From a virus, in IMG/VR virus record IMGVR_UViG_3300029319_000003, positions 96,001 through 160,000 of that record: a stretch of 64,000 bases of DNA. One strand, written 5' to 3'. A model generated the notes under the pieces. That model saw nothing but the letters and a program-made list of their open reading frames with translations. It was not told where the DNA came from and made no database searches. The position numbers and the translations under genes are program-made. Shown in pieces: positions 47,505-52,965 of this stretch (within the stretch, counting starts at the first letter, position 1; the number at the start of each line of letters is the position of its first letter).

Positions 47505-48812
47505 TTATAAAATTTTTGCGGCGAGGGTTGCGACCGAACTTCTTTCTCCGCGACGGAGCGTCACATGACCTGACAATCCGTGCTCCTTCATTCGCTCAAC
47601 AGCGTATGTCAAGCCGTTGGAAGTCTCGTCAATGTAGACATTATCAATCTGTTCAATGTCACCGGTTAAGACAATTTTTGTGTTCTCGCCTACACGGGTC
47701 ACAATTGTCTTTAATTCATGGCGAGTAAGGTTCTGTGCCTCATCAATAATAACGAACGCATTGGAAATGGACCTTCCGCGAATGTATGTCAGCGCTTCTA
47801 TATCAATCATGCCCTTTTCCATATACAACTCTAAAGTCGCCTTGTCACCCATTAGGAACTGCAAGTTGTCCTGCACTGGTGCGAGCCACGGAGCCATCTT
47901 CTCTTCTAGAGTACCGGGGAGGAATCCCAAATCACGCCCCATTGGCATGACCGGGCGGGAAACGACCAGCCTTTTATATGTCTGGTCTTCTTCCATAACT
48001 TGAGCCAACCCAGCAGCGAGAGCGCACAGAGTCTTACCTGAGCCGGCTTTACCAATCAAAGATACAATAGGAATGTTTGGGTCTAACAATAAATCCATCG
48101 CAAACGCTTGTTCTTTATTTCTTGGACGCACTCCCCAAATAGGCTGCTTTATTTCTTGAATTTTCTGCAAAGGTGCGCCTTGCTCAACATGTCTTACAAG
48201 TGCGGTCTTTTTTGGATTTGAACTTGATACAAGCATGACGTATTGATTGGGATACAAAATTTCTTCTGTTTCATCCAGCCAAACCGGTTCGCCGTTATAA
48301 TACTGCTCGATAAACTGATCATCAACCAAGCATTCTGAAAACCCAGTATAAAGGCTGACCACATCTTTTACCACTTGTCCAGTGATATAATCCTCACATG
48401 GAATTCCCAAAGCATCACACTTTACTCGCATGTTAATATCGCGGCTCACTACAATCGTTTTTCGATTGGGAGTGTCCTGCGCCTCGGTAAGAGCGGTGGC
48501 AATAATCTTGTTATCTGGAGAGTTGTCCCAATCTGCCGGAATTAATTTAGGATCATATCTCTTCGTAAAAATTAAACCAGAGCCCTTTCTAAGTCGCACT
48601 CCTTTATTTAGATTACCCTTTGAACGGAGTTCGTCTAATACTCTGATGGTGTGACGCGCATTGGAGCCCACGCCATCTTGTCGTTTTTTGTGTTTATCAA
48701 TCTCATCAAGCACCTTAAATGGAATAACAACATCATTTGTACCGTATGAGTAAATTGAATTGAAATCCGTGAGGTAAACGCTTGTGTCTAATACATATGT
48801 TTTCTTTGCCAT
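47505..48812 (-). CDS. phoH: PIN-PhoH fusion (PhoH2/YlaK-like)
   Basis: YVLDTSVYL PIN start; RPRNKEQ, GKAGSGKT, LTYIRGRSI, IIDEAQN, GDIEQID; start set at MAKKTY (48812). Confidence 0.9.
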   Translation of the reverse strand: MAKKTYVLDTSVYLTDFNSIYSYGTNDVVIPFKVLDEIDKHKKRQDGVGSNARHTIRVLDELRSKGNLNKGVRLRKGSGLIFTKRYDPKLIPADWDNSPDNKIIATALTEAQDTPNRKTIVVSRDINMRVKCDALGIPCEDYITGQVVKDVVSLYTGFSECLVDDQFIEQYYNGEPVWLDETEEILYPNQYVMLVSSSNPKKTALVRHVEQGAPLQKIQEIKQPIWGVRPRNKEQAFAMDLLLDPNIPIVSLIGKAGSGKTLCALAAGLAQVMEEDQTYKRLVVSRPVMPMGRDLGFLPGTLEEKMAPWLAPVQDNLQFLMGDKATLELYMEKGMIDIEALTYIRGRSISNAFVIIDEAQNLTRHELKTIVTRVGENTKIVLTGDIEQIDNVYIDETSNGLTYAVERMKEHGLSGHVTLRRGERSSVATLAAKIL

Positions 48813-48925
48813 GTGTTTCCTACTTTTCCGGCATCTATAAGTAGCAATAATCCTCAAGTTTCTTCTGTTTAAATTTTATTCTTCTAGTTACAAACGGGCA
48901 AACAACTTATCTGGAGGGTTTTACT

Positions 48926-49753
48926 GTGCTGAAGAAAATTTTAACATCAGCCATGTCGGGCATTGCGCTTCTCATGGCAACTGGGTGCGCTCACGTTGGA
49001 GCGGCGACTGCGGAACTACCAACGCAATCATTTGTACAAATATATAGATCAACAAACGTCATTTTGTGCGCTGAGAGTGAAGATAATAAGCCTCCAGAGT
49101 GTACATCAAATATTCGTGGACCAATCAGAAGCACCGCTTCTGGAGTGCTTGTAAAGAACTGGAGAAACAACTCTTTTCTTTTTACTGCTGGACATTTTTG
49201 CGAATCGTTTGAAATGAGCCCATCTGATGTTCCACCTTGGGCTGCGCCCTTTCCTGTTGCAGAAGTTAAATTCGAAGACACGTTCACAATTATTGATATA
49301 GACGGCAATGAACACAGCGGCGTTGTCTTGAACTATGATATGTCCATTGATGCATGTTTTATGTCAAGTGATATTATCAGCAAAAGACCTGTAGAAATAT
49401 CACCGCGTGGTGCAGAACCAACAGAAGAAGTGTGGAACCTTGCCGCTCCTTTGGGAGTTTATTATACAGGAACGGTACCAACCTTTCGCGGATACTATGC
49501 TGGAATTGGAGGTCCAAACGGTGGAGGAGTTTATACTGATCTCCCTGTCGCACCGGGCTCCTCTGGCTCTATGATTTTAATTGAGATAAGCGGTAAATAC
49601 TATCTTACCGGATTGGTACACTCCGTTGACACAAGGCTTCCAGAAATTGCCTATGGTGTCACACACAGCCAACTAATTGAGTTCTATGATATTAGTTGGA
49701 AAATGTATACCGACTCGCTCCCTCGCTTAGTAGTAATCCCAAGCGCATTTTAA
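48926..49753 (+). CDS. Trypsin-like serine protease lipoprotein
   Basis: Signal peptide with lipobox ATGC; catalytic triad motifs TAGHFC, DACF, PGSSGS. Confidence 0.8.
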   Translation: MLKKILTSAMSGIALLMATGCAHVGAATAELPTQSFVQIYRSTNVILCAESEDNKPPECTSNIRGPIRSTASGVLVKNWRNNSFLFTAGHFCESFEMSPSDVPPWAAPFPVAEVKFEDTFTIIDIDGNEHSGVVLNYDMSIDACFMSSDIISKRPVEISPRGAEPTEEVWNLAAPLGVYYTGTVPTFRGYYAGIGGPNGGGVYTDLPVAPGSSGSMILIEISGKYYLTGLVHSVDTRLPEIAYGVTHSQLIEFYDISWKMYTDSLPRLVVIPSAF

Positions 49754-49829
49754 TGGAGCCACTGATAGGACTTGAACCTACAACCTACTGATTACAAATC
49801 AGTTACTCTACCAATTGAGTTACAGTGGC
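49754..49829 (-). tRNA. tRNA-Thr(UGU), CCA encoded
   Basis: GCCACTG..CTGAT TTTGTAA TCAG..GTTCAAGTC..CAGTGGCTCCA; canonical 76-nt cloverleaf. Confidence 0.95.
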
Positions 49830-49835
49830 AAGTCA

Positions 49836-50255
49836 TTAAAACGGAGGTGCATCACCCACCAGCCGGCTGCTGCTTTGAATCTTACCGCCGCCGACGCCGA
49901 AGAGCATTTCGATATTCAACTCTCGGCATACTTCACCTTCGGGCGTGTTGCTTTGGAAGCGATCACCGCCATTGGCAAAATATGTTGGACGCAGACGCCT
50001 CAGAGCCTCACAGACCGTCCCGTCTTCATCATCGACCTCATGGACTGCTGATACTCCTGCAAGGGCTTCAATAATCTCTGCTCGCTGTTCCCAAGGCATA
50101 AAAACATAACCCTTTTTGCGCCTTAACCAAGCATCGCTATTGATTACTACAATTACATTTCCGACGGTTGCCGCTTCTCTGATCATGCGGACATGTCCAA
50201 TATGAATTGGATCAAAGCCGCCAGAAACCATCACTGTATCATATGGTGAACCCAT
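49836..50255 (-). CDS. Cytidylyltransferase-like (RfaE/TagD-type HxGH nucleotidyltransferase)
   Basis: SGGFDPIHIGH..INSDAWL..KKG..FANGGDR..KIQSSS. Confidence 0.85.
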   Translation of the reverse strand: MGSPYDTVMVSGGFDPIHIGHVRMIREAATVGNVIVVINSDAWLRRKKGYVFMPWEQRAEIIEALAGVSAVHEVDDEDGTVCEALRRLRPTYFANGGDRFQSNTPEGEVCRELNIEMLFGVGGGKIQSSSRLVGDAPPF

Positions 50256-50271
50256 GTCTATCTCCTATTAA

Positions 50272-51736: not shown

Positions 51737-51745
51737 ACAAAGTGA

Positions 51746-52000
51746 TTATCTGGGGAGTACCCAAGGATCTATACTTCGTGTAGACGAGCCAACAGGAGCG
51801 CATATGCACTCTTGGCTTGTAACTGACTCCATTTGTGAGCCATTGTTACTACATGATTCCTCGCAACTAATAATTGTTTCTTGTTCTAATGTGCAATTAG
51901 ACAACCACATACAGCCGAAAATGGTGAGGCAGATATATAGCACACCCTTGGCAAGCCCATTGGCTACAGCGTTAATTGTATCTTTGTCGTCTTGATGCAT
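51746..52000 (-). CDS. Small membrane/Cys-rich protein (84 aa)
   Basis: Hydrophobic helix VLYICLTIFGCMWL followed by CEESC..CIC; fills the gap between tmRNA and tRNA. Confidence 0.55.
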   Translation of the reverse strand: MHQDDKDTINAVANGLAKGVLYICLTIFGCMWLSNCTLEQETIISCEESCSNNGSQMESVTSQECICAPVGSSTRSIDPWVLPR

Positions 52001-52011
52001 GGTTTTTTAAA

Positions 52012-52346
52012 TGGTGGAGGCGGCGGGAATCGAACCCGCGTCCAAAATAAGTCCAATATAAGTCGTTCACAAGTTTAGTCAGTTTCTATCACCCACTGAC
52101 AAAGATAGACGGTTGTAATCTAATGCTTACCGTCCTGTTGCATTAGATGGTTTGATTTTTACAACTTGTCTGTTGTTTTGCTCAAATTGGATAGAAGGTT
52201 TTGAGCGACCTCCCGACTAAGCAGCGAGTGCTACAGCGTCGAAGTGTGTGTTGTTATTTGCAACTATTGTGTTTGAACGATTAAGGTTGTATCTCACCTA
52301 CTTGCACTTTTTCTCTTTCTTACCCTGTCGAATCCGTATCGCCCCC
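52012..52346 (-). ncRNA. ssrA: tmRNA with tag ANNNTHFDAVALAA
   Basis: 5' GGGGGCGATACGGATTCGAC; 3' GACGCGGGTTCGATTCCCGCCGCCTCCACCA with G3-U70; resume context AATAGTT-GCA; tag ORF 52217-52261 ending ALAA-TAG. Confidence 0.95.
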
Positions 52347-52751
52347 TTTGAATCTTTTACTAATATAGCCTCTCTTGGAGCCTTTGTCAAGTTCTTTTTC
52401 AGAAAAATATTCTTCAATCTTAAATTTTTCTTGAAGTTTGTAGAAGTGGCTGGGAGTGAGTCCTAAGAATCTCATCGCCTCGCCTTTGGTTCTAGTTGCT
52501 GAGAAAGTATATTTCAAGACAGCATCTTGCACAATGTCTTTTAAAGAATGCCATAGCGGTAGTCCATACAAAGCACTGCCTGCCGACTTCGAAGCCAACT
52601 CCAGTTTTAGACCGATCACTTCCTCCAGTGTCAGACTGTTTAACATGATTTCGAATTGATAGTTCGAACGCTTTTCTTTCCTCAGTTTACGAATAAGTGA
52701 GTACTCAGCGTTAACCCCTTTATGAATTCTTCTTTTCTTATTCCAAGGCAT
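52320..52751 (-). CDS. Fis-like HTH DNA-binding protein (143 aa)
   Basis: DAVLKYTFSATRTKGEAMRFLGLTPSHFYKLQEKFKI resembles the Fis/HTH_8 pattern. Confidence 0.5.
   Translation of the reverse strand: MPWNKKRRIHKGVNAEYSLIRKLRKEKRSNYQFEIMLNSLTLEEVIGLKLELASKSAGSALYGLPLWHSLKDIVQDAVLKYTFSATRTKGEAMRFLGLTPSHFYKLQEKFKIEEYFSEKELDKGSKRGYISKRFKGGDTDSTG
52362..52390 (-). promoter_or_regulatory. Sigma70-type promoter for tmRNA
   Basis: TTGACA-17 nt-TATATT, 16 nt upstream of the mature tmRNA 5' end. Confidence 0.8.
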
Positions 52752-52965
52752 TAAGAGCCTCGATCAGATCTGACTTTTTCAATTTATAGTATTGTGAAAT
52801 TTCTTTCTCTTTAGCAATTGCTTTTAGTTCACTTACCGTCATTGAACTGTAATCAATATCTTCTTTAATCTCTTTCGTTTCTTCTTTTTCAACATTATCA
52901 AAGAAACCGTTTGGATAGAATTTCTCTAAAGCCTTTGCAATCTCAAGACGTTTCTTAATAGACAT
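52738..52965 (-). CDS. Rho-termination-factor N-terminal (Rho_N/HeH) domain protein (75 aa)
   Basis: YSSMTVSELKAIAKEKEISQYYKLKKSDLIEAL. Confidence 0.8.
   Translation of the reverse strand: MSIKKRLEIAKALEKFYPNGFFDNVEKEETKEIKEDIDYSSMTVSELKAIAKEKEISQYYKLKKSDLIEALNALE

Follow-up and report, generated by a model that had tools for sequence, protein, structure and literature searches.

We asked whether the tRNAs, other structured RNAs and protein genes crowded into positions 47505-52965 of the window (the whole 64,000-nt stretch of viral DNA that was analysed) form a coordinated translation module, as the initial annotation had proposed. The DNA comes from an uncultured marine phage with a complete genome of 184,187 bp, and the six tRNA genes of the island, at 49754-51736, are the sole tRNAs in that genome. 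In the explanation that we favour, with a probability of about 0.68, the region serves an uncultured marine phage lineage, with genomes of ~160-190 kb, as its slot for stable RNAs and accessory genes. This reading is based on observed genes, conservation, covariation and synteny, from which we infer transcription, processing, charging and every function of the slot genes.

Content and conservation of the slot

All RNA genes of the island lie on the minus strand (ARAGORN, Rfam). The features are as follows:

47505..48857, minus: PIN-PhoH protein (PhoH2-type), 450 aa, slot edge; Pfam PIN_4 1.6e-28, PhoH 5e-53; phrog_2765 4.6e-114
48926..49753, plus: trypsin-like serine protease, 275 aa; Trypsin_2 22.7 bits, below the Pfam cut-off
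49754..49829, minus: tRNA-Thr(UGU); ARAGORN; Rfam 74 bits
49836..50255, minus: cytidylyltransferase-like protein, 139 aa (HxGH nucleotidyltransferase); Pfam CTP_transf_like 2e-13; phrog_7878 2.7e-19
50272..50356, minus: tRNA-Leu(CAA); ARAGORN, Rfam
50366..50497, minus: ncB, 132-nt pseudoknotted RNA; fold z-score -3.88
50535..50563, minus: sigma70-like promoter match TTGACA-17-TACATT (10/12 positions), upstream of ncB and tRNA-Leu
50580..50655, minus: tRNA-Arg(UCU); ARAGORN, Rfam
50661..50866, minus: ncA, 206-nt multi-branched RNA between tRNA-Asn and tRNA-Arg; fold conserved with L217
50874..50948, minus: canonical tRNA-Asn(GUU); ARAGORN, Rfam
50958..51055, minus: class-II-shaped tRNA(GUC), 98 nt; ARAGORN; Rfam tRNA 39.3 bits
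51081..51641, plus: J-domain-like protein of 186 aa, on the opposite strand to the RNA genes; DnaJ score 25.1 bits, under the Pfam cut-off
51642..51736, minus: tRNA-Ile(UAU), 95 nt, with a second hairpin; ARAGORN, Rfam
51746..52000, minus: Cys-rich ORF of 84 aa that includes a hydrophobic stretch; no family
52012..52346, minus: one-piece tmRNA; ARAGORN; RF00023 132.3 bits, full length
52320..52751, minus: HTH-like protein, 143 aa, all-helical, slot edge; weak HTH hits
52362..52390, minus: sigma70-like promoter match TTGACA-17-TATATT (11/12 positions), upstream of the tmRNA
52738..52965, minus: Rho_N/SAP-like protein, 75 aa; Pfam Rho_N 1.6e-09, above the cut-off

Most of the components named in the initial annotation were recovered: the four canonical tRNAs, the two non-canonical long tRNAs and the tmRNA were in place, the Rho_N assignment was above its cut-off, and PIN-PhoH, which is 60-67% identical in relatives, strongly matched both of its Pfam families. 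The protease and J-domain calls are supported despite their sub-cut-off scores because the former contains GHF, IDAC and GSSGS motifs (by reading) and the latter an HPD that is invariant in three alleles. Two genes were absent from the earlier list, the cytidylyltransferase-like gene (90% identity in L217) and the 84-aa ORF (80% identity in L217 and 100% in L146; no Pfam or PHROG match).

The source phage and the 12 relatives compared share the slot frame, which is bounded by the HTH gene on one side and by PIN-PhoH on the other. In 11 of the 13 lineages the HTH gene was immediately followed by the tmRNA (tmRNA orthologues were found in 10 relatives), a trypsin-like gene adjoined PhoH in 10, and tRNA-Arg(UCU), Thr(UGU) and Asn(GUU) recurred among the relatives. 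The cargo was variable: it comprised 0-7 tRNAs and differed in nearly every relative. Of the relatives, only the closest, L217 and L146, had ncA, the long-arm tRNA and the J-domain gene in the slot; the cytidylyltransferase-like gene was there in these and in L214. The Rho_N gene was present in L217 and L218, and the L470 and P0120 contigs also have one in their slots; a ClpP-like gene occupied the slot in four relatives known from sequence and in two more contigs known from gene tables only, and HNH and SET genes were present in some relatives. As a check on the module, proposed earlier, synteny gave a mixed result: the frame, the two gene pairs, the recurrent tRNAs and the ClpP-like genes speak for it, and the variable cargo speaks against it.

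Such turnover of cargo, together with the HNH and SET genes, would fit a recombination-tolerant dumping ground (a hyperplastic region), in which the atypical tRNAs and the two RNAs would be decaying or selfish insertions without a translation role and their co-location functionally meaningless. The swapped J-domain allele (47% identical in L146, where the flanking genes are 99-100% identical) and the limitation of ncA to three close contigs point the same way. However, the constant order of HTH gene and tmRNA, the intact cloverleaves and encoded CCA ends of all slot tRNAs, and strong purifying or compensatory patterns in the two-armed tRNA-Ile, the long-arm tRNA, ncB and ncA make this explanation very unlikely.

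Atypical tRNAs and structured RNAs

In the slot reading both atypical tRNAs are real, selected variants. The tRNA-Ile(UAU) has an extra hairpin, a 4-bp stem with the loop CUGAUAA, that displays a GAU anticodon loop. Its family comprises 33 distinct members with five helices, 95.8% paired, and covariation in every helix. The RNA may read AUA codons while bearing a duplicate of the usual Ile(GAU) anticodon arm, and this arm may be a handle for IleRS, as the typical enzyme charges UAU poorly (PMC3575796). AUA is rare in the phage (9% of Ile codons), so the demand for an AUA-reading tRNA is not obvious.

The 98-nt tRNA has the anticodon GUC, U37, C38, G73, U1:A72 and a Leu-like D arm. Among the 12 members of its family 98.8% of cells are paired, 12 pairs are changed on both sides and the acceptor stem is almost invariant; the anticodon is GUU in nine, including the L217 orthologue, and GUC in three. 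Because of U1:A72, G73 and the GUU or GUC anticodon, the identity points to Asn/Asp and not to Ser. This tRNA would be of Asn type in a class II shape with U37, its anticodon switched to GUC in the source phage. Position 37 is a pyrimidine in 12/12 members, all with the anticodon GUY, a type that nucleases like colicin E5 cleave.

These features would suit a sharpened form of the initial annotation's reading, in which the island is a counter-defence cassette and host tRNAs are cut by anticodon nucleases or by other defences aimed at tRNAs or ribosomes. The odd-shaped tRNAs (U37, extra arms) would then be nuclease-resistant replacements, the tmRNA would clear stalled ribosomes, the proteases and the J-domain co-chaperone would remove tagged or misfolded products and PIN-PhoH would act on RNA. 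Phage tRNAs can rescue infection from tRNA-cleaving defences (PMC10264068, PMC11555353, PMC11464382). Near-identical phages differ strongly in their J-domain allele, a pattern common among host-interaction genes. On the other hand, most relatives that keep the tmRNA lack both the long-arm tRNA and the J-domain gene in the slot, and we regard a dedicated cassette as possible but rather doubtful.

In the stable-RNA slot that we favour, the canonical Thr(UGU), Leu(CAA), Arg(UCU) and Asn(GUU) tRNAs could provide extra decoding for heavily used codons or replace host tRNAs lost in infection. In the phage's own usage the commonest Thr codon is ACA (36%), UUG shares first place among the Leu codons (28%), AGA accounts for 20% of Arg, and GAY and AAY together for 116 per 1000 codons.

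The two RNAs that had been described as structured and unassigned proved to be so: neither ncA nor ncB had an Rfam match at E<=10, and both are conserved with compensatory changes in L217. ncB consists of a closing stem, a variable hairpin, a hairpin with a loop that base-pairs to a 5-6-mer further downstream, and a GYGARRA-loop hairpin; its pseudoknot covaries (five versions). A descriptor search found nine instances in the lineage versus one in shuffled sequence, and five of the nine lie, in relatives, between the HTH gene and the tmRNA. A paralogue is located at 173.7 kb of the genome (model R1, 26.8 bits, E 0.0016). The consensus fold of ncA and its L217 counterpart has 68 pairs, 10 of them changed on both sides, with core segments kept and peripheral hairpins replaced; model R2 detected ncA only in the source window, L146 and L217.

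Transcription, tmRNA and neighbouring proteins

The sigma70 promoters that were said to serve the RNA genes correspond to the two near-consensus pattern matches listed above. Such matches numbered 16 in the region versus 10.7 expected. That of the tmRNA lies within the 3' end of the HTH gene, and L217 has a TTGACA box at the same place as the ncB/tRNA-Leu match (by reading). From a few promoters of this type the RNA genes may be transcribed as multi-gene precursors, which host RNase P and 3' processing enzymes would cut; ncA and ncB would be co-processed stable RNAs.

The tmRNA encodes the tag peptide ANNNTHFDAVALAA and its acceptor stem has G3:U70, because of which it is presumably charged by host AlaRS. 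As neither SmpB nor other translation factors are encoded in the phage genome, it would work with host SmpB, release stalled ribosomes and append the ..ALAA tag. The last 27 nt of the HTH gene overlap the tmRNA. The 143-aa protein has a C-terminal HTH-like segment and 542 homologues, many of them marine, including TARA, and its nearest Atlas clusters are all viral. Some family members weakly match HTH_28, HTH_29 or HTH_8, and the AlphaFold model (pLDDT 72.6) had no significant PDB fold match; the 'Fis-like' call amounts to a weak and generic HTH signal.

Do the protein genes cooperate with the RNAs? The recurrence of trypsin-like and/or ClpP-like genes with the tmRNA would suit counter-defence and could reflect more than neighbourhood. 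However, the protease has a predicted signal peptide, with a hydrophobic N-terminus ending in ..ATGC and a possible lipobox (by reading); it looks exported and is unlikely to act on cytoplasmic tmRNA-tagged proteins. ClpP-like genes are placed by PHROGs mainly as head maturation proteases, and the source slot has none. For the nearby 'ligase-like fusion' (55329-57941), searches of Pfam and of PDB sequences gave no ligase or nucleotidyltransferase match at E<=1, which leaves that call unsupported; the one signal in its product was a weak PHROG hit, 'cytidyltransferase', over residues 719-840. Of the coordinated module, the conserved slot remains, while the exported-looking protease, the lack of SmpB and the unsupported ligase argue against the coupling. 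The slot protein genes are best taken as neighbours by genome architecture rather than as demonstrated RNA partners.

Comparison with known systems

The island is an already known type of phage translation island, carrying new RNA variants. Bxz1-type mycobacteriophages are among the known carriers of phage tmRNAs. Sets of tRNAs with a tmRNA have already been described in large and huge phages (Al-Shayeb et al. 2020, PMC7162821), where several tRNAs likewise cluster with the tmRNA and the proposed role is to maintain translation and rescue stalled ribosomes. The source phage differs in that its 184-kb genome is below the 200-kb 'huge' line and encodes no SmpB or other translation factors, a conserved HTH gene accompanies its tmRNA, joined in relatives by a pseudoknotted RNA upstream, and two of its six tRNAs are non-canonical.

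The stable RNAs C and D (species 1 and 2) of phage T4 are small RNAs of unknown function that lie between tRNA genes and are freed by tRNA processing. ncA and ncB resemble them in ending 5-9 nt from the ends of neighbouring tRNAs. No sequence or Rfam relation to the T4 RNAs was found, and unlike these ncB also occurs away from tRNAs (at 173.7 kb) and precedes the tmRNA in relatives.

Like the TilS-independent tRNA-Ile(UAU) of Mycoplasma mobile, the two-armed tRNA has a UAU anticodon of the unmodified type for AUA and raises the same IleRS charging problem (PMC3575796). While M. mobile changes its IleRS, the phage tRNA bears a second arm with a GAU loop, which no paper found in our literature search describes. 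Defence-evading phage tRNAs, which have altered anticodon loops, can stand in for host tRNAs that defence nucleases have cut (PMC10264068; PMC11555353; PMC11464382); the unusual U37 of the long-arm tRNA recalls them, but the tRNAs of the source phage go beyond loop substitutions in having whole extra arms. Finally, the long-arm tRNA resembles class-II-shaped tRNAs whose anticodons are not those of Ser, Leu or Tyr, allo-tRNAs among them (Mukai et al. 2017, PMC5389517), in combining a long variable arm with the anticodon of a class I amino acid, whereas its acceptor and T stems are of the normal 7/5 type and those of allo-tRNAs are 8/4 or 9/3.

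Gene content and synteny of the RNA slot

The virus record was rated complete at 184,187 bp, the window being its bases 96001-160000. Six tRNAs and a one-piece tmRNA were found at 47505-52965, all on the minus strand, with ARAGORN and Rfam concordant, and these six are the sole tRNAs in the whole genome. Among deposited phages there was no close relative by DNA (the matches were tRNA pieces only), and the top PIN-PhoH match was <40% identical. The features of this island, apart from its tmRNA and four canonical tRNAs, are as follows.

Features of the island (window positions)
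47505-48857: PIN-PhoH protein; strong assignment, PIN_4 at residues 21-157 and PhoH at 243-435 (Pfam)
plus strand: trypsin-like protein, 275 aa; Trypsin_2 below the Pfam cut-off
49836-50255: cytidylyltransferase-like protein, 139 aa; absent from the initial annotation
50366-50497, minus strand: ncB, a 132-nt pseudoknotted RNA
50661-50866, minus strand: ncA, a 206-nt RNA
50958-51055, minus strand: long-arm tRNA(GUC), 98 nt
51081-51641, plus strand: J-domain-like protein, 186 aa; below the Pfam cut-off, HPD kept in three alleles
51642-51736, minus strand: two-armed tRNA-Ile(UAU), 95 nt
52320-52751: 143-aa helical protein
within the island: 84-aa ORF
within the island: Rho_N protein, 75 aa
preceding the tmRNA: sigma70-like site, near-consensus pattern match
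preceding ncB and tRNA-Leu: sigma70-like site, near-consensus pattern match

The PIN-PhoH protein has the PhoH2 architecture, in which a PIN domain at the N-terminus is joined to a P-loop ATPase of the PhoH type. Together with the 143-aa gene it frames a slot whose synteny we read in 12 related loci with DNA (L007, L009, L131, L132, L133, L213, L214, L217, L469, L470, L471 and L472). The backbone was kept on both sides: one flank consists of large structural-like genes and the 143-aa gene, the other of PIN-PhoH, a PD-(D/E)XK exonuclease and two glycosyltransferases. In the window, the exonuclease-like gene and the two tandem glycosyltransferase genes of this backbone lie downstream of PIN-PhoH, at 42759-46075. 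In 11 of 13 lineages the 143-aa gene is directly followed by the tmRNA (L132 and L214 lack the tmRNA), and the trypsin-like gene adjoins PhoH in 10 lineages. The number of tRNAs per slot ranges from 0 (L009, L131, L133) to 7 (L007), the most recurrent being Arg(UCU), Thr(UGU) and Asn(GUU), and a ClpP-like gene lies inside the slot in L213, L214, L469, L472 and two contigs known from gene tables only. As for the two closest relatives, L217 has the full window arrangement, including the J-domain gene, the 84-aa ORF, ncA, ncB and the cytidylyltransferase, with a 143-aa protein 86% identical to that of the window, and L146, near-identical to the window, covers the stretch from the 84-aa ORF to PIN-PhoH. 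This synteny means that the place and the core of the island are conserved, while most of the parts that the initial annotation had joined into one coordinated module are changeable cargo.

The same annotation had proposed paired proteostasis genes. These genes are in place, but the protease looks exported, the slot of the window phage holds no ClpP and the J-domain gene is swapped cargo, which makes for a weak proteostasis pairing. Against Trypsin_2 the trypsin-like protein reached 22.7 bits (cut-off 27.6), and its homologues in L213, L471 and L472 gave unmarked Trypsin_2 matches. Candidate triad motifs (GHF, IDAC and GSSGS) can be read from its sequence, as can an N-terminal signal peptide and a possible lipobox, from which the protein looks exported. 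The three J-domain-like alleles, 45-47% identical to each other, scored 25.1, 23.1 and 22.1 bits against DnaJ (PF00226), all under the cut-off of 27.8, with an invariant HPD (H82-P83-D84); a search for related viral loci that started from the J-domain protein gave no match. In L146 the J-domain gene (605-1162, minus strand) is 47% identical to the window gene and resembles the L217 allele, whereas the other island genes are 99-100% identical, which points to a cassette-like allele swap within the tRNA cluster.

The slot ClpP-family genes of the relatives (L213:10801-11415, L469:10439-11047, L472:10796-11407 and L214:11194-11832) are 63% identical between L213 and L469; PHROGs assigns them mainly to head maturation protease, an odd category at a non-structural location. 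The sole ClpP-like gene of the window phage is 117 kb off, shares only 28% identity with the slot ClpP of the relatives and has head maturation proteases as its best matches. For these reasons a tmRNA plus ClpP pair was dropped as evidence for the window phage. The ligase-like fusion reported next to the island was not borne out, as no ligase adenylyltransferase family was matched in Pfam or PDB sequences. This 870-aa neighbour had no ligase or nucleotidyltransferase match in Pfam at E<=1 (a spurious HEAT_2 only) or in PDB sequences; it matched phrog_2859 (unknown function) and, weakly, a 'cytidyltransferase' PHROG at its C-terminus (residues 719-840).

The 143-aa protein has 542 homologues, many of them marine (including TARA), and its closest Atlas clusters are all viral, the Atlas lead scoring 0.82-0.84. 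The window copy had no Pfam match, no PDB sequence match, no significant fold match and no SmpB match. As for a Fis-like HTH, 3 of the 44 family members matched HTH_8, with E 0.02 at best, and more members matched other HTH families; in fold comparison the DNA-binding domain of TyrR gave a weak local match (E 4.1, probability 0.41). The gene is extended at its C-terminus in the window phage and the kin closest to it (143 versus about 124 aa); the predicted promoter boxes of the tmRNA lie in this extension, which also covers the initial 27 nt of the tmRNA (52320-52346). Most relatives have a spacer of 150-300 nt where this extension lies.

The tmRNA and two structured RNAs

The tmRNA matched RF00023 over its full length (model positions 1-374) at 132.3 bits, the gathering score being 47. 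Its acceptor, GGGGGCG/CGCCUCC-A-CCA, is tRNA-Ala-like, with G3:U70 and a 3' CCA, and ARAGORN gave the tag frame ANNNTHFDAVALAA* with a hydrophobic tail of the ..LAA type. Judged by these predicted elements, the tmRNA has the features required for charging and tagging. SmpB (PF01668) had no match anywhere in the phage genome at E<=1, and the tmRNA would therefore have to use the SmpB of the host. A 'permuted tmRNA' Rfam match at 52217-52419 was an overlap artefact of the one-piece tmRNA.

Neither ncA nor ncB matched Rfam, even at permissive thresholds. The fold of ncB starts with a 10-bp closing stem and a variable hairpin, followed by a hairpin with a 12-nt loop, for which a 5-6-mer further downstream, ahead of UGGC, is the pairing partner, and it ends with a hairpin with a GYGARRA loop. 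Loop and partner covary in five versions (GGCUC/GAGCC, GGUUC/GAACC, GACUC/GAGUC, GUCGU/GCGAC and GUCAU/AUGAC). A descriptor of this fold gave 9 instances in about 2 Mb of sequence versus 1 in shuffles, all from the lineage of the window phage, a count that is partly circular since the descriptor was derived from the same sequences. Five of the nine instances occupy the interval from the 143-aa gene to the tmRNA (L009, L131, L133, L213 and L472). The spacer before the tmRNA is missing where the longer 143-aa gene overlaps the tmRNA, that is, in the window, L217 and L469; in the window phage and L217 ncB is located upstream of tRNA-Leu, behind a promoter-like box in both, and none was found in the examined part of L469. 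In L131 and L213 a U-run also follows the ncB closing stem, immediately before the tmRNA.

A diverged second copy of ncB, found with the ncB model (R1), lies outside the window between two protein genes (G000:C1:173721-173871 of the whole genome, minus strand; L135:1222-1372). It has a 12-bp closing stem, after which come a U-run, a ribosome-binding site and an ATG, a layout like that of a terminator or leader. As for ncA, its core segments are kept in L217 while peripheral hairpins are swapped with compensatory changes (10 double changes). A scan of viral contigs with the ncA model (R2) and a 17-mer gave chance matches only; ncA is confined to close kin of the window phage.

tRNAs with extra arms

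The canonical tRNAs (Thr, Leu, Arg and Asn) scored 61-74 bits against RF00005, with 7/5 cloverleaf stems, U33 and a purine at 37. The codon use of the phage matches the supply of Thr, Leu, Arg, Asn and Asp, and a need for AUA is not obvious. The 95-nt tRNA-Ile has a normal UAU anticodon arm with U33 and A37, after which comes a second hairpin with a 4-bp stem and the 7-nt loop CUGAUAA, identical to that in the anticodon arm of ordinary tRNA-Ile(GAU). Unpaired bases separate this hairpin from its neighbours (3 on one side, 6 on the other), and the variable loop after it is of the usual kind (AGAUC), unlike the long variable arm of a class II tRNA, which lies close to the core. Pattern scans of viral and metagenome contigs yielded 33 distinct two-armed sequences, which align on a common fold of five helices with 95.8% of cells paired. 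Within the extra hairpin, each of the four base pairs shows two-sided changes (stems include GGGU/ACCC, GGAU/AUCC and GUGG/CCAC); its loop was set by the search patterns, so that loop constancy among the 33 sequences is built in. The strict pattern occurred in 0 of 185,579 prokaryote genomes, BLAST found no two-armed tRNA-Ile in deposited phages, and a literature search found no paper on it. Because UAU is charged poorly by E. coli-type IleRS (PMC3575796), it is a reasonable idea that the second arm with its GAU loop might be a handle for charging by IleRS. Related tRNA clusters carry a tRNA-Ile(UAU) of ordinary length (76 nt) without the second arm (L470:13693-13768 and L415:2356-2431), and thus the extra arm is not obligatory for a phage UAU tRNA.

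The 98-nt tRNA is a clean cloverleaf whose two-part variable arm consists of GGUG/CACC, a 4-nt bulge and a 3-bp stem capped by GAAA. We found 12 sequences of this family, nine with GUU and three with GUC (window, L146 and L415); the L217 orthologue has GUU where the window has GUC, a difference at position 36. U37, C38, G73, U1:A72 and a G4-U69 pair are shared by all 12. In their alignment 98.8% of cells are paired and 12 pairs are altered on both sides, with a nearly invariant acceptor stem. As a canonical elongator the tRNA was rejected, U37 violating the purine-37 rule in every member, and so was a Leu/Ser/Tyr-type class II tRNA, since the arm is class II (helices 4 and 5) but the anticodon, GUC or GUU, is not. 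We take U1:A72, G73 and GUU to be consistent with Asn identity, and GUC, C38 and G73 with Asp. A canonical tRNA-Asn adjoins many long-arm members. Among the 120 matches listed from a second prokaryote scan, 119 lay outside any tRNA and one was a true member (L415).

Other extra arms were seen in viral contigs L226, L245, L260, L265, L277, L282 and L302, which hold a family of 88-93-nt tRNA(CAU) whose variable arm is long and whose acceptor begins like that of an initiator (CGCGGGG). Extra variable-arm hairpins are also present in an 85-nt tRNA-Asn(GUU) (L182) and an 86-nt tRNA-Lys(UUU) (L101). Phages may commonly carry class I tRNAs in class-II-shaped form.

Interpretation and comparison with known phage islands

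The safest reading is that of a phage translation-supply island of known kind in a lineage-specific slot. A counter-defence role is plausible by analogy with the literature on phage tRNAs. A more ambitious proposal, which we consider unlikely, is that the slot would be a translation-autonomy and counter-defence cassette in which the RNA parts (ncB, the two-armed tRNA, the long-arm tRNA and the tmRNA) cooperate. There, ncB would act as a regulatory or processing leader for tmRNA/tRNA transcripts, and the second GAU arm would draw host IleRS (and t6A enzymes) to a TilS-free AUA-reading tRNA. Host tRNAs with GUN anticodons would be replaced by a nuclease-proof one, the U37 class-II-shaped Asn/Asp tRNA, and the tmRNA would free ribosomes stalled once those host tRNAs are cut. 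If the extra arms control charging or nuclease resistance, this would reveal a new principle of tRNA identity, as well as a novel way in which phages respond to immunity that targets tRNAs. The conserved frame of the putative HTH gene (143 aa), tmRNA and PIN-PhoH makes natural variants easy to compare.

As a translation-supply island the region is ordinary, because phage tRNA islands with tmRNA are already known. In the literature we found no description of a tRNA with two anticodon-type arms, of a class-II-shaped Asn/Asp tRNA with pyrimidine 37 or of a tmRNA-linked pseudoknotted RNA. Thus the interest of the island lies in these undescribed RNAs, which belong to an abundant, uncultured marine phage lineage, and in the link between ncB and the tmRNA, rather than in the proposed protein-RNA system.
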